From the IMG/VR virus record IMGVR_UViG_2724679140_000015: a DNA stretch of 35,494 bases; one strand, written 5' to 3'. The DNA is from a virus. Lineage: Duplodnaviria > Heunggongvirae > Uroviricota > Caudoviricetes. The first letter of the stretch is position 1. The number at the start of each line of letters is the position of its first letter. The notes beneath the pieces are model-generated. The model was not told the DNA's origin and made no database searches. It saw only the letters and a list, made by a program, of their open reading frames with translations. The position numbers and the translations under genes were made by a program. Of the stretch, positions 22,167 to 35,494 are shown piece by piece.

Positions 22167-22890
22167 AACTGCTGCCTCCCCATGTGAGATATCGCGGTGC
22201 CAGCTCACGCAGAATGCGTTGCGGATAATGACGGTTCTCCCGCCAGCTGGCCGCATTGCGTCCGGCATTCACCGTGGCGACATGACCAAACCAGCGGGTG
22301 CTGTCCAGACCTTTCTGTGATGCAAGCCGCCTGTCCCGTTGTACCCAGCCCAGACCACCGTTATAGCCCGACAGTGTCATGGCCATACGCTCGCAGTCGT
22401 TGGCGGCGCTGACGCGCTGCCACAGCCAGCGGTCATAGCTGACCAGCGCCCGGATAGCCCATGCAGGATTAAACGGCTCACGACTGCTCAGCATCGGTAT
22501 CAACTGGCTTATCCAGTCGGCAGTGGCAGGCATGAACTGCGCCAGTCCTTGAGCGCCAGCCGGTGAGACCGCATCAGGTCGCCAGCCGCTTTCCTGATGC
22601 AGTTGCGCGGCAAAGTCGGCCACCGGCGCAGACAGTCCCCATTCAAGCCGGGCATTACGGATCACATCATCGCGATACTGCAGCGCAGCCTGCGGAGGTT
22701 GTGCTGCGCATGCCTGGCTGAAAAAGCCGCCACACCAGAGCAATATTGCGACAAAGAATACCCATGCCATATGAACCAGAAAGGTCCCGGCGCGGACTGA
22801 CAGGCGTTCGGTTCTGATGAAGACCCGAAAGGCTTCGAAAGCCAGTTTCAGGGACATGCATACAATCCAGGTGATCTGCGGCCAGTTCAT
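22150..22890 (-). CDS. endolysin, lytic transglycosylase (SLT domain), possibly signal-anchored
   Basis: GLAQFMPATA motif typical of SLT domains; N-terminal hydrophobic stretch; alternative start at 22770. Confidence 0.65.
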   Translation of the reverse strand: MNWPQITWIVCMSLKLAFEAFRVFIRTERLSVRAGTFLVHMAWVFFVAILLWCGGFFSQACAAQPPQAALQYRDDVIRNARLEWGLSAPVADFAAQLHQESGWRPDAVSPAGAQGLAQFMPATADWISQLIPMLSSREPFNPAWAIRALVSYDRWLWQRVSAANDCERMAMTLSGYNGGLGWVQRDRRLASQKGLDSTRWFGHVATVNAGRNAASWRENRHYPQRILRELAPRYLTWGGSSCVASG

Positions 22891-22892
22891 GA

Positions 22893-23243
22893 TTAAAGCC
22901 CCATCGCAACAGCCAGGCAGACCGCTGCAACAATCAGTGCACGGCGGATTAACGCAGCAGAAAACACCAGGTGAAGGCCGGTCTGTACCGGGAAACGCCC
23001 TTCAGCCATCAGCCTGTCGTCATGTTTCAGGTACTGACCGGGACGGGCTTTGGGGAAGAGCGAACGGTCAAGCCAGTAACCCAGCACTGCTGCCAGCGTG
23101 ATGAGTGCCAGCTTGTAGATCACAACAGGCAGTTGCTGTGGTGAGACCAGAGCGATGGTGCCCAGCAACAGCACTGAGGTCAGCAGCCAGCCGCTGAGGC
23201 GAGGTTTTTTAACAGGGGGAATGAATGTTTTCAGGTTTTTCAT
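22893..23243 (-). CDS. putative holin (small membrane protein)
   Basis: Two to three predicted transmembrane segments; AAGGAG 6 nt upstream of ATG at 23243; immediately upstream of endolysin. Confidence 0.45.
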   Translation of the reverse strand: MKNLKTFIPPVKKPRLSGWLLTSVLLLGTIALVSPQQLPVVIYKLALITLAAVLGYWLDRSLFPKARPGQYLKHDDRLMAEGRFPVQTGLHLVFSAALIRRALIVAAVCLAVAMGL

Positions 23244-23373
23244 GTGTGTCTCCTTATCTGGTGGAGACAGCATCACAAATACAGGGCGCGAAGGATTTTA
23301 AAGCGCGTTAAGAGAGCCGGGGATACGGGATGTGCAGGATAAACGATGAATTATTCACAGAGGAGAATACGAT

Positions 23374-24117
23374 ATGACGCAGACACTGAATCCGGTCATC
23401 ACTGTCACCGTGTCCGGTCCTGTGGGCAGCGGTAAAAGTTACATATTGGCGCGGATAGAGGAAGTGGTGAAACAGGAATTCGGAAACAGCGTCATTGTCG
23501 ACGCCGCAGACGTGGACGGTGAGCGCCGTATGAGTGGGGGTGATCTGAGCACATGGCAGAAACCACGGGCAGGCACACTTATCCGACTGGAGGAATACAC
23601 AGAAAAAACTCCGATGTCATACAGCGAGGGATGCATTCTCCGGACGAATGCACTGCTGGATGTTATATGCCCCACAGGCCAGTACCCATGGACACTGCCC
23701 GATGCACTGCATGCCACTATTGCGGCACTGATGGCAGTTTACGATCAGGAGCTGCTCATGAAGGAGCTACGTAAACTCACTGGTCAGCCAACAGAATGTT
23801 TTTCGGCCCCGAAGTACGGGAAGCAGGAACACATCCCGGTGAACACAATCCCCGTTAACCAGCCTCCCCGGTTCTTCGACGAATACATTCTGACACCGGA
23901 AAATAAAGCTGAGCATGAAGTGATCAAAGAGGCGTTGTTCCGGGAAATCAGGAAGATTGCTGAAATGCAACTGGAGGGCGGGCTGGACAGAGTGATGGCG
24001 AGAGGAGAATGGGAATCGCTGTTTGAAAGAACTTCCCCGGAATTACTTCCCCTCGCACTGGCTATCGGGATTATGCAGACAGCGGATAAACCTCACTTAC
24101 GTTCATTAAACACGTAA
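23374..24117 (+). CDS. small P-loop NTPase/kinase-like protein, function unknown
   Basis: Walker A-like GPVGSGKSY near N-terminus; GAGGAG RBS 8 nt upstream of ATG. Confidence 0.5.
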   Translation: MTQTLNPVITVTVSGPVGSGKSYILARIEEVVKQEFGNSVIVDAADVDGERRMSGGDLSTWQKPRAGTLIRLEEYTEKTPMSYSEGCILRTNALLDVICPTGQYPWTLPDALHATIAALMAVYDQELLMKELRKLTGQPTECFSAPKYGKQEHIPVNTIPVNQPPRFFDEYILTPENKAEHEVIKEALFREIRKIAEMQLEGGLDRVMARGEWESLFERTSPELLPLALAIGIMQTADKPHLRSLNT

Positions 24118-24497
24118 CTCATAATCCGGGATACGCGTTCAGCGATGACTGCATTTTCACCGGTTTTTACTGCATCCAGAAGTGACTCTTTAAATGGTGC
24201 GGGCCGGGGCTGCAGAAGGGTCGGCGTGGCATTGAGCAGACGGAGCGTTTTTTCCGTGAGGACGACATCAGCCGCTCCCACAGCCAGCAACTGAGAGTAA
24301 CGAATATAGCTGTTATCCCGAAGCCATATCAGCGTATCAATAAAATACCGGCACTTTTTCTGGTCGTGATCAACCTGGTCCGGGATATCGAAAAAACCAG
24401 AATAAATCAAAACCTGAGGTGCCGGATGCGTGTTCAGTAATCGGCAGAATATTTTGCCGGTGAGTGCATAAAAATCATCATTTAAGGAGTGCATCAT
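24093..24497 (-). CDS. hypothetical protein, paralog 1 of a duplicated ~130-aa family
   Basis: Shares several conserved blocks with 24963-25343 (e.g. IFxRL, DTxxWLxxxxY, LNATP). Confidence 0.45.
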   Translation of the reverse strand: MMHSLNDDFYALTGKIFCRLLNTHPAPQVLIYSGFFDIPDQVDHDQKKCRYFIDTLIWLRDNSYIRYSQLLAVGAADVVLTEKTLRLLNATPTLLQPRPAPFKESLLDAVKTGENAVIAERVSRIMSYVFNERK

Positions 24498-24711
24498 GAA
24501 TCCCCGATTAACGTTAACAGAACATCAGCGCCGTGCTGAAGCAGTGAACAATGTTCTGGAAGATATTATCCGGTTACATCGCGGAGAACTGAGTGTCTGT
24601 CGTGCCACAGTTCATTTTCAGGAAATACAAAAGCAGTTTGATACTTCTGTTTTTGCAGAAGGTATTACTTATGCCCTGGACCAGATAAGGTCAGAAAATC
24701 GCCCCGGATAA
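24496..24711 (+). CDS. hypothetical 71-aa protein
   Basis: Strong AAGGAG RBS 6 nt upstream of ATG; start overlaps the divergent start of paralog 1. Confidence 0.35.
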   Translation: MNPRLTLTEHQRRAEAVNNVLEDIIRLHRGELSVCRATVHFQEIQKQFDTSVFAEGITYALDQIRSENRPG

Positions 24712-24902
24712 TCCCTAAACCACATTAACAGAAATCACTTCATCCCTGCCGCATCATGAAAGAACGACCAGCCCGGTGCTTCGGACCCACCGGGCTGGCC
24801 ATCGTCCCACAGAAGTGGCTGTGAGCCGACCGAGGTTCAGTCAGTCTCGCGAGACCAGACTAGCCTGCCATATTTTTAATAATTGTAAAATGTTTACAGA
24901 TT

Positions 24903-24956
24903 ATGAAAACGCAGACATTACCCATCGTTCCATGGATTGGTGGCAAACGCTGCCTT
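24903..24956 (+). pseudogene. truncated remnant of a Dam-like methyltransferase N-terminus
   Basis: MKTQTLPIVPWIGGKRCL matches the N-terminus of the intact gene at 25538 (MKEQSLPIVPWIGGKRRL); frame diverges and stops at 25004; upstream ~85 bp also duplicated. Confidence 0.45.
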
Positions 24957-24962
24957 GCGATA

Positions 24963-25343
24963 TTACATAAGACCACGAGACATATATTGCAGACCTATTC
25001 CTAGAGTCTGGCTAACCAGTGATCGCAACGCTTCTTTCCCTTCAATTTTTATAGAGTCAGATATTCTGGCCCCCAACGGTTTTTCCAGACTTCCAGGCGT
25101 AGCGTTTAATACCTCAAGACCTTTAGCCGTTAGCACTGCGTTGTGGATCCCCCCAGAACTACGCGCCCCGATTAAATAGCCACTGTTTTTAAGCCAGTCT
25201 ACGGTATCAAGAAAAAAAGTAAGTTCATTCTGTCTAACGATATCAACTGCCTTTATATCAATTTTGACGGGGAAAGATTCGTAGAGTCTCCCAAATATCT
25301 CACCAACTATTTCATTAAACCGCTCAATATTTTTTGGGGCCAT
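24963..25343 (-). CDS. hypothetical protein, paralog 2 of the duplicated ~130-aa family
   Basis: Likely start at internal ATG (MAPKNIERF...) at 25343; ORF-track start at 25427 probably over-extended. Confidence 0.45.
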   Translation of the reverse strand: MAPKNIERFNEIVGEIFGRLYESFPVKIDIKAVDIVRQNELTFFLDTVDWLKNSGYLIGARSSGGIHNAVLTAKGLEVLNATPGSLEKPLGARISDSIKIEGKEALRSLVSQTLGIGLQYMSRGLM

Positions 25344-25537
25344 GGTATTAGTAACTCCCTTTAATTGTCGCCCATGAAATATGCAAATAACATGAAAAGA
25401 GCGACTCACCTTGTGCAGCGAACACAAGGCGAGTCATCAACTTACAGGTATGAGCTGTGAGTCAACCGAGGCTCTTCCGTTCTCGAGAACAAGGGAAGCC
25501 TATCGCATTTTCATCTAATGAAAAAGGCTTACAGATA

Positions 25538-26302
25538 ATGAAAGAACAATCTTTACCCATCGTCCCCTGGATTGGGGGAAAACGTCGTCTGGCCAAACAC
25601 ATTCTGCCCCAGTTCCCACTCCATACCTGCTATGTGGAGCCATTCTGCGGCGCAGCAGCACTTTATTTTCTCAAGACTCCCAGCAAGATCGAAGTCATTA
25701 ACGATATCAACGGTGAACTGGTAAATCTGTATCGGGTAGTAAAGCATCATCTGGAAGAATTTGTCCGCCAATTCAAATGGGCGCTGGTTAGCCGGCAGAT
25801 CTACAAATGGCAGCAGATCACCCCGGAAGAAACACTGACGGATATCCAGCGTGCGGCACGGTTCTACTACCTCCAGAAGCAGGCGTTTGGGGGCAAGGTG
25901 GCAGAGCACAGCTTCGGCACCTCCACCACCTCCCCGCCACGCTTCAACCTGCTCCGGATTGAAGAAGAACTGTCAGCGGCACACCTGCGGCTTTCCAGAA
26001 CGGTGATAGAACACATGGACTGGCACCAGTGCATTAAGCGTTATGACCGTCCGCACACGCTGTTCTACTGTGATCCGCCCTATCTGGGGACGGAAGGCTA
26101 TGGTGTGGATTTTCCTGAAGAGAACTACACACTACTCGCAGAACTGGCACGGTGCATCAGAGGAAAGATGATTATCTCGGTGAATGACATTCCGCAGATG
26201 CGTCGGGTGTTCACTGAACTGAACATACAGACGGTGAATATCAACTACAGTCTGGCGGGGAAACCCACGCCGCGCCGTGAACTGGTAATCTGCAACTTCT
26301 GA
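25538..26302 (+). CDS. orphan Dam-like N6-adenine DNA methyltransferase
   Basis: N-terminal PWIGGKR and FCGAAA (AdoMet-binding-like) and catalytic DPPY motif; start at ATG 25538 preferred over GTG 25457. Confidence 0.7.
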   Translation: MKEQSLPIVPWIGGKRRLAKHILPQFPLHTCYVEPFCGAAALYFLKTPSKIEVINDINGELVNLYRVVKHHLEEFVRQFKWALVSRQIYKWQQITPEETLTDIQRAARFYYLQKQAFGGKVAEHSFGTSTTSPPRFNLLRIEEELSAAHLRLSRTVIEHMDWHQCIKRYDRPHTLFYCDPPYLGTEGYGVDFPEENYTLLAELARCIRGKMIISVNDIPQMRRVFTELNIQTVNINYSLAGKPTPRRELVICNF

Positions 26303-26308
26303 AACAAA

Positions 26309-26333
26309 ACCGGAAAGCACAATGCTTTCCGGT
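26309..26333 (-). terminator. hairpin (11-bp stem) followed by T-rich tract on the minus strand; likely terminator downstream of the repressor gene
   Basis: CCGGAAAGCA-CAA-TGCTTTCCGG read directly; minus strand continues TTTTGTTTC. Confidence 0.4.
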
Positions 26334-26418
26334 AAACCAAACAACTTCCACTATGTCACTGGCGATGTTTTCTGAAAGCATCCAGATCAACCACGCGCCC
26401 TTTGTGTCCAGGTCAAAA

Positions 26419-26757
26419 TCAGCCTGCGAGTTTGCTTGGTTTGGGTTGAATGAAGACTTTGCCGACCTCAAGAATTGCCCTCCGTTGTTCGGGGCTCATT
26501 TCGTCGAATGCATCCATTAACTCTTTCTTTTCTTGTGACACATAAGGTGCAACAACAGGCTGACTCCGCACCCCAGTAACTACATACAAAATATCTACAC
26601 CGATTTCTGATAGTGCAGATAACTGCACTGCAGTAGGAGAAGTGCGATCTTTTTCCCAATCAATGAAAGTTCTCTTTGCCACACCTATAGCATCAGCCAA
26701 CCCTTGCTGTGTAAGAGATAGACGCTCTCTTTCTTCTTTAATACGTAACCCGATCAT
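26419..26757 (-). CDS. phage repressor, XRE-family helix-turn-helix
   Basis: HTH-like LSLTQQGLADAIGVAKRTFIDWE; divergent from the ner-like gene; start at ATG 26757 preferred because the ORF-track start (26910) overlaps ner by 50 bp. Confidence 0.5.
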   Translation of the reverse strand: MIGLRIKEERERLSLTQQGLADAIGVAKRTFIDWEKDRTSPTAVQLSALSEIGVDILYVVTGVRSQPVVAPYVSQEKKELMDAFDEMSPEQRRAILEVGKVFIQPKPSKLAG

Positions 26758-26781
26758 GTGAGTTTTTCTGCACTCTTTAAG

Positions 26782-26810
26782 TTGACTGGTGAGATAATCT
26801 GCACCATAAT
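26782..26810 (+). promoter_or_regulatory. candidate early promoter (TTGACT-17 bp-CATAAT) with repeated ATAATCT motifs (operator candidates)
   Basis: Sigma70-like hexamers read directly, ~45 bp upstream of the ner-like start. Confidence 0.35.
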
Positions 26811-26857
26811 CTATCACACATAAGGCAAACATCATTGCATCAACAAAGGAGACAACG

Positions 26858-27046
26858 ATGACTGCAGAACAAGTCAAAGCTCTCTTCCGCCAGCGCGGGA
26901 TCACCTTCACCCGCTGGGCAGAAGAAAACGGCTACAACCGCAATGAGGTATACCGCGTTCTCAATGGGCAGACCAAAGCCCGTTACGGTAAATCCCATGA
27001 AATCGCCGTGAAGTTGGGGCTGAAATCAACAGCTCAGGCAGCCTGA
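26858..27046 (+). CDS. ner: Ner-like DNA-binding protein
   Basis: 62-aa ORF with Ner/Nlp-like pattern; AAAGGAG RBS 5 nt upstream; first gene of the rightward early block. Confidence 0.55.
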   Translation: MTAEQVKALFRQRGITFTRWAEENGYNRNEVYRVLNGQTKARYGKSHEIAVKLGLKSTAQAA

Positions 27047-27098
27047 AGATTTTGAGTCTTTGTAAAAGGTTATCACATATCGCAAAAGAGGTATGCAG

Positions 27099-27407
27099 AT
27101 GAGTAAGACGAATGTTTCAAGCTCCGGCAGTCGCATCCTCCGGGTACTCAAAGCGCTGCGCGGTCATGCCCTGAACGGTATTTCCAACGGTGAACTGGCG
27201 GCAGCACTGCACGAGTCACCGGCAAACATCAACCGGGCACTCAACACCCTCATTGAAGAAGGGTTGGCCCTGAAACTGGAAAACGGGCGTTTCGCGCCGG
27301 GCATCCAGTTACTGCAGATCGCTATGGCCCACAGTAACGAGATGGCACGTGCACAGGATCGCATTAACGAAATCAACCAACGTGTCATTTCAGGTAGTCG
27401 TTTGTAA
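27099..27407 (+). CDS. putative winged-helix DNA-binding protein
   Basis: RILRVLKAL...ISNGELAAAL...INRALNTLIEEGL resembles a MarR/IclR-type wHTH; RBS AAAGAGG 7 nt upstream of ATG 27099. Confidence 0.4.
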   Translation: MSKTNVSSSGSRILRVLKALRGHALNGISNGELAAALHESPANINRALNTLIEEGLALKLENGRFAPGIQLLQIAMAHSNEMARAQDRINEINQRVISGSRL

Positions 27408-34682: not shown

Positions 34683-35124
34683 ACAACGTCTTATCCAGCT
34701 CATTCATATTGCCCGTAATGAACTGGGTATGGATGAAGACACCTACCGCCAGATGTTAGAGGGGCTGACCGGTAAAGCCTCAACCAAAGGAATGGATACC
34801 ACACAACTAAACTGCGTGCTGGAATCCATGAAAAGGAAAGGCTTTCGCGTTAAGCCTGCCGGAAAAGCCAGCTCCGGTTTACAGCTGGATAACCATCCGC
34901 AGTCCAGGAAAATCCGTGCGCTATGGCTTGAAATGGCTGCTGCCGGCATTGTTCGTGACCGTTCAGAAAATGCATTAGCGCGGTGGATCAAGCGGGAAAC
35001 GGGCATCAGCGCCCTGCGCTGGCTCAGTACTGAACAGGCAAGCAGTGTTATTGAGAAACTGAAGAAGTGGCAGCGCAGAGCTGCGGGAGTAAAACATGAG
35101 CGACCTGAATCAGTTTCGAAGTAA
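34672..35124 (+). CDS. GemA-like protein (Mu gp16-like)
   Basis: Located immediately upstream of the Mor-like gene as in Mu; AAGGAG RBS 5 nt upstream of ATG 34672. Confidence 0.5.
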   Translation: MMTKQRLIQLIHIARNELGMDEDTYRQMLEGLTGKASTKGMDTTQLNCVLESMKRKGFRVKPAGKASSGLQLDNHPQSRKIRALWLEMAAAGIVRDRSENALARWIKRETGISALRWLSTEQASSVIEKLKKWQRRAAGVKHERPESVSK

Positions 35125-35494
35125 AGGGCCGGAACTCCTGGTGGAACTGGCACAGCATACCTCTGAGACCGTTCGCGAGATTATTGATATTGAGCCCGCA
35201 ATTGCCGACCAGATTGGTCAGGCCGTCGCGAACCGAATGATGCAGGTCTGGGGCGGGCAAAACGTTTATTTCCCGATGGGCATGGTATGGAAGGTCAGTC
35301 AGCGCGACCGGGAAATCTTCAGGGAGTTTAACGGACGCAACCACCACGAACTGGCCCGCAAGTTTGGTGTTTCGCTTCAGTGGGTCTACAGCGTGGTTAA
35401 GCGGGTCAGAAAAGAAGAACTGGATCGGATGCAGGGCAGGTTGTTTGATGAAGATCTGCCAGAGGAGACGAAAGACGTTAACAAATCCAGATAA
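35096..35494 (+). CDS. mor: Mor-like middle-operon transcription activator (Mor/C family)
   Basis: 132-aa ORF with C-terminal HTH-like region (GRNHHELARKFGVSLQWVYSVVKRVR); position after gemA-like gene. Confidence 0.55.
   Translation: MSDLNQFRSKGPELLVELAQHTSETVREIIDIEPAIADQIGQAVANRMMQVWGGQNVYFPMGMVWKVSQRDREIFREFNGRNHHELARKFGVSLQWVYSVVKRVRKEELDRMQGRLFDEDLPEETKDVNKSR

Follow-up and report, generated by a model that had tools for sequence, protein, structure and literature searches.

The switches of phages P2 (C/Cox) and 186 (CI/Apl) consist of divergent genes with face-to-face promoters, and in the "excludons" of Listeria divergent genes give transcripts that overlap at their 5' ends, the expression of one interfering with that of the other. 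Rousset et al. (PMC9122126) demonstrated that the gpA-cos-gpQ (P2 old/tin) locus is an antiviral hotspot, and six of eight randomly chosen P4 satellites with uncharacterised genes at the defence locus protected against phages (PMC13586616). The subject of this report is a pair of divergent genes in an accessory block (positions 23374–26302) of IMG/VR virus record IMGVR_UViG_2724679140_000015, the whole stretch of which (35,494 nucleotides) is called the window. The pair consists of a gene for a winged-helix protein (A) and a gene for a 71-aa helical partner, and their start codons overlap by two bases. Hotspot and moron cassettes of temperate phages are already known, and the methylase and the variable slot found in the same block are ordinary features of such phages; what is new here is the winged-helix/partner cassette with its conserved start overlap.

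The two genes are read in opposite directions from a palindromic CATG (Table 1), and the Shine-Dalgarno sequence of each is located within the first codons of the other. The strong ribosome-binding site that the initial annotation had credited to the 71-aa open reading frame (ORF) is present. The 71-aa protein is conserved at 35% identity in Serratia and carries the motif D-x-h-x-RA-x-x-W/F-x-E ... LAxAL. It is homologous to the C-terminal module of the 247-aa P-loop protein encoded on the same strand (hhalign, 81% probability, E 1.2e-5), the motif common to the two in a joint alignment being D-x-V-x-RA-x-x-W-E...LAxAL, and the last 25 nt of the P-loop gene overlap the 3' end of A convergently. 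By BLAST, Salmonella lacks exactly the 862-bp segment 23840–24701, and this segment was therefore defined as the A cassette. It is read as a winged-helix gene flanked on the other strand by two paralogous helical modules. The same plus/minus/plus triad with the same overlaps was found in two further prophages (L031 and L033), one of which is without Dam.

A second winged-helix gene, B, lies on the same strand as A. Its start was placed at ATG 25343 (MAPKN, as in RefSeq), not at the upstream TTG of a 154-aa ORF. That the two minus-strand proteins are paralogues was borne out by 27% identity (E 2e-12) and by their common assignment to phrog_2266. The winged-helix fold was recognised from a helix-turn-helix (HTH) and a beta-hairpin wing in a confident AlphaFold2 (AF2) model and from matches to winged-helix domains; an additional N-terminal helix and a C-terminal helical hairpin are predicted as extras of the family. 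Neither A nor B matched Pfam. DUF2513 (PF10711) was matched by three of 31 members of the winged-helix family, with a best E of 0.035 that is far short of threshold, and a fold search of BFVD returned weak matches only, to uncharacterised proteins. In the profile check of the small proteins no Pfam or NCBIfam family reached threshold, no PADLOC model applied, and the PHROG families were all of "unknown function", in keeping with the earlier statement that these proteins belong to no characterised family. In searches of open-access text nothing was found about the winged-helix/partner cassette, the function of DUF2513, the accessions of the RefSeq proteins, or prophage genes that diverge from overlapping start codons.

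The distribution of the pair was determined by a scan of one genome per species, in which 24 further winged-helix loci were found, including those of an Enterobacterales bacterium, an Aeromonas and several metagenome-assembled genomes. At 15 of the 24 a C precedes the winged-helix ATG, so that a divergent ATG overlaps it by two bases; 14 of these 15 are labelled Pseudomonas. The divergent frame is open for 76–83 codons in 14 of the 15 and is short (8 codons) in the remaining one. Partner hidden Markov models built from enterobacterial sequences only matched the divergent ORF of the 14 Pseudomonas loci at 1e-6 to 1e-12. At the Pseudomonas loci the GGAG ribosome-binding site of each gene lies in codons 3–5 of the other. 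The start overlap of two bases was seen also in L031, and in L029 when the first of two ATGs is taken as the start of A; homologues of the 71-aa protein stand head-to-head with a winged-helix gene in Serratia, L031, L033 and Pseudomonas. The Pseudomonas pairs are located between TerL and a lambda-type portal gene, beside tail tube and sheath genes, or beside a holin gene, with the partner reading in the direction of the phage operon and the winged-helix gene running antisense to that operon.

A phrog_2266 gene and a divergent gene for a partner of 63–64 aa, again with a 2-nt start overlap, occupy the gpA-cos-gpQ locus of the P2-like phages Midge and ST147-VIM1phi7.1. The CATG start-overlap geometry is thus kept from E. 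coli to Pseudomonas and across BcepMu-like, lambda-like and P2-like prophages. No methylase gene adjoins the pair in L031, at the Pseudomonas loci or at the P2-like loci, and none adjoins the winged-helix gene of L016. The cassette is dispensable and mobile, and its sites are those in which phages house genes for exclusion and defence, among them the P2 old/tin hotspot, which has been validated by experiment. In the Klebsiella phage ST147-VIM1phi7.1 (L059 3793–5792) the pair is directly beside a reverse transcriptase gene and an XRE regulator gene.

The same data bear on whether the small ORFs are functional at all. Compared with the allele common in E. coli (L024 2302–2706), A has eight nonsynonymous and no synonymous changes, which are too few for a test and may hint at diversifying selection; the ratio of nonsynonymous to synonymous divergence (dN/dS) of the 71-aa gene against that allele is 0.76. 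These figures, and the position of the ORFs in a recombination-rich region with a real pseudogene fragment (a dam remnant, see below), could be taken to mean that they are decaying remnants or chance frames. Such an explanation is close to untenable in our judgement: the frames, the protein motif and the start overlap are kept from E. coli to Pseudomonas at 15–35% identity, dN/dS between A and its Serratia homologue is 0.21, the predicted fold is confident, and the Shine-Dalgarno sequences are strong.

The anatomy, homologies, conserved geometry, genomic contexts and mosaic history reported here were observed directly; the logic of expression, an antagonism between the two proteins and a biological role are what we infer from them. 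Because there is no intergenic DNA and the start codons overlap, transcription of either gene has to start within the other one, and therefore the 5' ends of the two messages, including both ribosome-binding sites, must be complementary. The gene for A and that of its partner would not be well expressed simultaneously and would be expressed alternately. In lysogeny, with the surrounding phage operon silent, a promoter belonging to the winged-helix gene would drive the synthesis of its protein. In lytic growth the partner modules would be made on read-through of the operon, antisense across the winged-helix gene, and the partner would probably also neutralise the winged-helix protein. The behaviour of the pair as a mobile moron, with sites in late operons and at the antiviral hotspot of P2, makes an exclusion, defence or regulatory role the most likely one, and the winged-helix protein may be an exclusion/defence or regulatory factor expressed in the lysogen, with an antidote for the lytic cycle of the resident phage. 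We infer an antisense-coupled lysogeny/lysis two-state cassette, possibly for exclusion or defence with a self-antidote.

For the block as a whole the favoured explanation is that three separately inherited units (a backbone, the A cassette and a B cassette) occupy a recombination slot, and that the pair in the A cassette works as a lysogeny/lysis two-state device. Taken as a whole, with the unit structure, the expression logic and the role together, this explanation is given an even chance of being right. A more far-reaching reading is offered tentatively and is more probably wrong than right. It holds that the pair represents a new and widespread class of prophage cassette, an either/or defence with shared start codons in which self-immunity is based on the geometry of transcription: the winged-helix protein of the lysogen would exclude or abort other phages (or silence a target), and the partner made on lytic read-through would switch it off. 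If a defence or exclusion switch is true, both a new system and a new regulatory principle would be involved; if the pair is only a regulator, it would still be a compact natural example of antisense-coupled divergent genes.

Several results weigh against the two-state proposal. No homology could be detected between the 71-aa family and the partner in the P2-like phages (phrog_2454). About nine of the 24 scan loci, and the B-type genes, are without a partner, so that the winged-helix protein can act alone and the antidote idea is not general. Helix 3 is acidic in both A (DTLIW) and B (DTVDW), and DNA binding is therefore not assured. Promoter-like matches in the window, L024, L037 and L044 were at or below the number expected from shuffled sequence, and the transcription starts could therefore not be placed. 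The winged-helix genes of the window point the same way as the late genes, unlike those of Pseudomonas, and for the antisense-to-operon argument to hold in the window a single plus-strand transcript of the P-loop, 71-aa and dam genes would be required. In PADLOC 2023 (PADLOC-DB 2.0) A, B and the 71-aa protein had no match, the P-loop protein had only P-loop noise (E > 0.002), and the neighbouring slot genes were likewise without a match.

The two-gene layout also invites comparison with toxin-antitoxin and abortive-infection modules, in which one protein would be toxic and the other, or an antisense 5' RNA, would restrain it. The pair is a mobile cassette of two small-protein genes found in prophage hotspots next to known defence genes, its complementary 5' ends recall the antisense control of type I modules, and its proteins diverge fast relative to Dam. 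Type II pairs, however, are almost always co-transcribed, whereas the A and 71-aa genes are divergent; many members of the family, B among them, have no partner; and no toxin or antitoxin model of Pfam, NCBIfam or PADLOC was matched, nor was a nuclease, kinase or membrane domain present. This identity is considered unlikely, though not negligibly so.

A similarly low standing is given to the proposal that the pair is a small developmental switch, comparable to C/Cox of P2 or CI/Apl of 186, which tunes the lysis-lysogeny decision or the late transcription of the resident phage and does not act on other phages. One component has a winged-helix fold, the divergent layout with overlapping 5' ends can be seen as an extreme form of the face-to-face promoters of P2 and 186, and several BcepMu-like prophages have the winged-helix gene at the end of the genes that follow the repressor, immediately ahead of the holin. 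The prophage, however, already has a repressor, a Ner-like protein and a Mor activator, the cassette is missing from many close relatives that are presumably viable, and the pair is found at unrelated sites too (between terminase and portal genes, and in the P2 accessory hotspot). Because of this absence from relatives and the variety of sites, a dispensable moron fits better than a part of core regulation, and the accessory two-state cassette was retained as the preferred explanation.

The separate inheritance of the units was examined by comparing related prophages. The region between the holin and repressor genes had at least eight different gene contents among relatives, as the idea of a variable hotspot had foreseen. 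In BcepMu the slot holds gp18–gp20, between repressor gp17 and holin gp21, without a methylase or winged-helix gene; in KP12 and E. coli AVS0747 it holds a DUF2441 protein, Dam and another small gene. E. coli FDAARGOS_1077 (L022) has a 158-aa P-loop protein and two genes without assigned function, with neither Dam nor a winged-helix gene. Metagenomic relatives (L019–L021) have the N-domain protein (see below) followed directly by Dam, with no winged-helix gene between. Serratia marcescens has an 89-aa protein, an A homologue, a 73-aa protein and Dam, and in Brenneria and S. quinivorans the genes behind the repressor end with a winged-helix gene, Dam being present or absent. The slot of Salmonella (L025) contains a 158-aa P-loop protein, B and Dam and lacks A and the 71-aa gene. 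L016 has the winged-helix gene without Dam, the enterobacterial prophage L031 has the plus/minus/plus triad without Dam, and L033 has P-loop, winged-helix, small partner and Dam genes in the same order as the common E. coli version.

As possible distant relatives, BcepMu gp19 (by hhalign), KP12_281 and, in L019 and L021, small genes adjoining Dam were compared with the winged-helix family, and none matched. A conserved larger partner was sought among neighbours of about 320 aa in P. tohonis, Brenneria and S. quinivorans, which were not homologous across all three; none of these neighbours matched PADLOC, and those that were scanned did not match Pfam. The idea of a late activator, suggested by the position of the winged-helix gene before the holin in some relatives, was set aside, the window having a Mor-family activator and BcepMu having gp01. 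In P. tohonis (L004 4801–9013) a partner-less winged-helix homologue lies between genes for 328-aa and 767-aa proteins, neither of which matched Pfam or PADLOC, and is followed by a Bro-N gene; this may be another island of uncharacterised genes.

Within the window the joins are sharp. Pairwise BLAST placed breakpoints at 23839/23840, 24701/24702 and 24958/24959, and another at about 25433. Collinearity with the common E. coli/PhiKM type (L024, PhiKM), at 95.5%, extends exactly to 24958, and a Salmonella-type match at 89% begins at 24702 and continues onward. Measured against the common E. coli allele, synonymous divergence (dS) is 0.46 for dam, 0.01 for the holin gene, 0 for A and 0.04 for the 71-aa gene. 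Given these breakpoints, and a dS of 0.46 in dam where neighbouring genes are near zero, it is concluded that B and the present dam allele came in through a crossover in the 5' end of dam. The dam remnant contains a 41-nt leader and the first 19 codons (ATG 24903) of the common E. coli allele, and marks the crossover junction. The duplication had been interpreted as cassette shuffling, and the breakpoints and the contrast in dS agree that the two winged-helix paralogues came by recombination.

The divergent frame of B is closed after 11 codons, and in Salmonella the B gene lies between the genes for the 158-aa P-loop protein and Dam; the B cassette is accordingly described as a partner-less winged-helix paralogue that arrived with the foreign dam allele. 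Between the starts of dam and B is a very stable hairpin (25402–25436) with an RNA folding z-score of −3.2. It is identical in Salmonella and L029, the copies being too alike for covariation to be assessed, and it may serve as an attenuator or a binding site, or insulate against antisense transcription. The version of the block without B is present in about 456 of 5426 complete E. coli genomes and the version in the window in about seven; some 8% of complete E. coli genomes, for the most part from human isolates, carry the A cassette.

The initial annotation had proposed that all six parts of the block cooperate as one methylase-centred system with an epigenetic, anti-restriction or exclusion function. 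In its favour the four-gene version (P-loop, A, 71 aa and Dam) is unchanged in the roughly 456 E. coli genomes, and the gene order is the same in Serratia and L033. The 456 genomes, however, represent about 92.5% identical copies of one prophage lineage, and their agreement is therefore inheritance and not independent co-occurrence. Relatives carry the parts in different combinations: the N-domain and Dam alone (L019–L021), the triad without Dam (L031), B and Dam without A or the 71-aa gene (L025), a winged-helix gene without Dam (L016), neither Dam nor winged-helix gene (L022), or none of the parts (BcepMu). Because the parts assort freely, the block is not one co-inherited system; this proposal is largely refuted by the comparative data and is held to be very unlikely. 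What stands of it is an accessory, shuffled region with small proteins of no characterised family, and what falls is their conserved co-occurrence as one module.

The methylase is an orphan D12-class N6-adenine DNA methyltransferase. Its start was placed at ATG 25538, as in RefSeq (which annotates only five genes in the slot), and not at GTG 25457. The match to PF02086 scored 96.4 bits against a cut-off of 22, residues 38–261 of the long ORF covering profile positions 1–248 of 253. Motif IV is present as CDPPYLG, and motif I reads FCGAA, with its last G changed to A, where E. coli Dam has FVGAG. The protein is 94% identical to the PhiKM methylase, 82% to the Serratia copy and 65% to phiE125 gp27, and the gene is about 70% identical at the DNA level to those of B3 and VP882 (about 71% to B3 ORF48). 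Its dN/dS is 0.08, and it is under strong purifying selection.

The label "Dam-like" holds at the level of the D12 family (PF02086) but is not supported as to GATC specificity. The curated Dam models were missed (TIGR00571, 112.6 against 114.85 bits; the EcoDam equivalog NF008152, 64.8 against 441), and the target-recognition hairpin of EcoDam and DpnM, NGLxRxN...FNVPxGRY, is replaced by FGGKVAEHSFGTSTTSPPRF. At the positions aligned with L122, R124 and N126 of EcoDam, which we take from EcoDam-DNA structures to be the residues of the GATC-reading hairpin, the methylase has K, A and H. Because of the missed cut-offs and the replaced hairpin it was classed as an orphan adenine methylase without a GATC assignment. 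It also matches generic MTase_II models in PADLOC-DB 2.0. Membership in the non-specific Hia5/Hin1523/Nma1821 group is unlikely because B3 ORF48, its relative at about 71% DNA identity, is outside the 1000 closest relatives of Hia5 (PMC3299994). Judged by what such phage enzymes are known to do, the methylase would modify phage (and host) DNA, giving protection from restriction or epigenetic effects. GATC is scarce across the window (positions 1–35494), with 92 sites against 166 expected from a second-order Markov model, and its density is lowest in the early arm (1.5 per kb).

Since a winged-helix gene adjoins dam in E. coli, Salmonella, S. marcescens, Brenneria and L033, and B and dam diverge from a shared control region of 194 bp with a large inverted repeat, it may be asked whether the winged-helix proteins regulate the adjacent methylase gene in the manner of restriction-modification controller proteins or of divergent regulators, with the 71-aa protein as co-regulator. 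No ORF with nuclease similarity was found in 23277–26418 by ORF list, Pfam or PADLOC, so that a restriction endonuclease gene is absent beside the methylase. The family occurs, in the same arrangement with its partner, where no methylase is nearby at the 14 Pseudomonas loci, in L031, in L016 and in the P2-like hotspot; the winged-helix gene and dam are convergent in Brenneria; and in L019–L021 Dam has no intervening winged-helix gene, the small neighbours that were compared not matching the family. Regulation of dam is on this evidence distinctly improbable as the task of the winged-helix proteins.

The 247-aa Walker-A protein had been correctly picked out as an ORF with that motif, and the P-loop-like region proved to be confined to its first 75 or so residues. 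GPVGSGKS at residues 15–22 conforms to GxxxxGK[ST], and G20 and K21 are invariant in 32 family members; one relative reads GAESSGKN at this position. An exhaustive profile search collected 69 representative proteins, most of which share only the first ~75 residues and in which this N-domain stands alone (about 80 aa) or precedes unrelated helical C-terminal modules. Its layout is GxxGxGKS, a helix, two further strands and an hhhLEE end, the last being a possible Walker B. No Pfam or NCBIfam family reached threshold for the 247-aa protein, the matches below threshold covering strand 1, the P-loop and helix 1. Matches to the PDB were restricted to the strand-P-loop-helix element, with designed minimal P-loop proteins (9jix, 6c2u) among the better ones. 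An AF2 model of the whole protein from the single sequence, without an alignment, was unusable (predicted local distance difference test score, pLDDT, 36).

The modular structure of this protein follows the breakpoints. The 158-aa versions of Salmonella L025 and E. coli L022 stop at the breakpoint, with 80% identity over residues 1–157, and the C-terminal module, fused in L031 and L033 as it is in the window, stands in Serratia as an 89-aa ORF of its own (48% identity). In other BcepMu-like prophages the N-domain protein is encoded at the same place, divergent from the holin gene, co-directional with dam and directly upstream of it, and the order "N-domain protein, then Dam" is the positional backbone of the slot in these phages. 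Together with the C-terminal modules that are shuffled behind it, the mini P-loop domain forms an uncharacterised family that may be of interest in the study of minimal nucleotide-binding folds.

The window itself was identified as a BcepMu-like (Bcepmuvirus) transposable prophage of E. coli. Its DNA matches the chromosome of E. coli IGC_RcoliRes_1.1 at 100% identity and Escherichia phage PhiKM, a Bcepmuvirus in the GenBank classification, at 92%. The Bcepmuvirus-type gene set is complete (rve [DDE] transposase, MuB-like AAA ATPase, GemA, Mor, Mu portal, SLT endolysin, and a holin with two or three transmembrane [TM] segments), the gene order is that of BcepMu, and the late and early arms are on opposite strands, the late genes running on the minus strand as far as the endolysin and holin. 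The block lies between the holin and HTH_3 repressor genes, which agrees with its earlier placement between the lysis and immunity genes of a Mu-type phage. It was also said to be more AT-rich than the structural genes, and its GC content is 0.45–0.51 over 24001–26500 against 0.55–0.60 in those genes. All six of the features first listed were found in the ORF list, with some gene starts corrected. A second hairpin, between the convergent dam and repressor genes, is probably a terminator for both. No structured RNA of Rfam was detected in 22800–27200. The repressor gene is itself allelic when the window and its close relatives L024, L025 and L029 are compared, versions of 112, 118, 138 and 152/163 aa being found among them, and similarity is lost between 26533 and 26805; the immunity type has therefore been exchanged along with the neighbouring cassettes.

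Table 1. Positions of the genes, modules and DNA elements of the accessory block and of neighbouring genes in the window
Feature	Position	Strand	Details
Winged-helix protein A, 134 aa	24093–24497	−	phrog_2266
Palindromic CATG	24495–24498	both	ATG of A (−) and ATG of the 71-aa gene (+) overlap by 2 nt
71-aa helical partner	24496–24711	+	phrog_4490, E 5e-51; AAGGAG 6 nt before ATG
P-loop protein, 247 aa	23374–24117	+	Walker A GPVGSGKS; Shine-Dalgarno GAGGAG
Mini P-loop N-domain, ~75 aa	23374–23604	+	Walker A GPVGSGKS; ends ...TLIRLEE
Middle module of 247-aa protein	23605–23839	+	Ends at recurrent breakpoint 23839/23840, codon ~155
C-terminal helical module (residues ~175–247)	23840–24117	+	Left part of A cassette, fused in frame
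dam remnant	24862–24958	+	97 nt; direct repeat, 72% identical, of 25497–25593
Winged-helix protein B, 126 aa	24963–25343	−	phrog_2266, E 2e-35; no divergent partner
Hairpin upstream of gene B	25402–25436	−	14–15 bp, GC-rich, followed by U-run; from terminator-like scan
Orphan D12-class N6-adenine DNA methyltransferase, 254 aa	25538–26302	+	PF02086, DPPY
Hairpin between convergent dam and repressor genes	26309–26333		A-run before and opposite-strand T-run after, as in a bidirectional terminator
SLT endolysin	end of late genes	−	Profile match
Holin, 2/3-TM	22893–23276		PF13272
HTH_3 repressor	26419–26910	−	Profile match
Ner-like protein, IclR-type HTH protein, DUF3102 protein	repressor side of window		Profile matches
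rve transposase, MuB-like AAA protein, GemA, Mor	repressor side of window		Profile matches
Mor-family activator	35096–35494		

Compared with described systems, the methylase resembles the orphan D12 methylases of phages (B3 ORF48, phiE125 gp27, VP882 Dam) in Pfam family, in motifs, in being a gene of a temperate phage and in having no restriction partner. It differs from E. coli Dam and DpnM in the hairpin with which those enzymes read GATC and in scoring below the "dam" and EcoDam cut-offs. With com-mom of Mu and the FluMu-type Hin1523, Hia5 and Nma1821 enzymes (PMC3299994) it shares the condition of an accessory DNA-modification gene in a Mu-like transposable phage, with a probable anti-restriction purpose. 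Unlike com-mom it is located between the lysis and immunity genes and not at the mom position, and it is without Com; and it probably belongs to another methylase subfamily than Hia5, Hin1523 and Nma1821.

The accessory genes of the block occupy the same slot as gp18–gp20 of BcepMu, but the genes are unrelated (gp19 did not match the winged-helix family by hhalign) and the BcepMu slot has no methylase. DUF2513/YjcQ-type proteins have a winged-helix fold in common with A and B, some homologue records are named "DUF2513 domain-containing", and YjcQ (2hgc) was among the weak Foldseek matches; A and B differ from them as members of the phrog_2266 family with an extra N-terminal helix and a C-terminal helical hairpin. 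The P2 old/tin hotspot (PMC9122126, PMC13586616) harbours the same type of pair, and the pair of the window is likewise in a variable accessory slot. In contrast to the antiviral cassettes of that hotspot, the pair is a candidate for such a role and matches no model in PADLOC 2023, and the slot in the window is BcepMu-like and not P2-like. The layout resembles P2 C/Cox, 186 CI/Apl and the Listeria excludons in consisting of divergent genes with transcripts overlapping at their 5' ends, as deduced here from the geometry. The proteins are unrelated in sequence to those of these switches and excludons, and the pair is set apart from them by having no intergenic region and start codons that share two bases.

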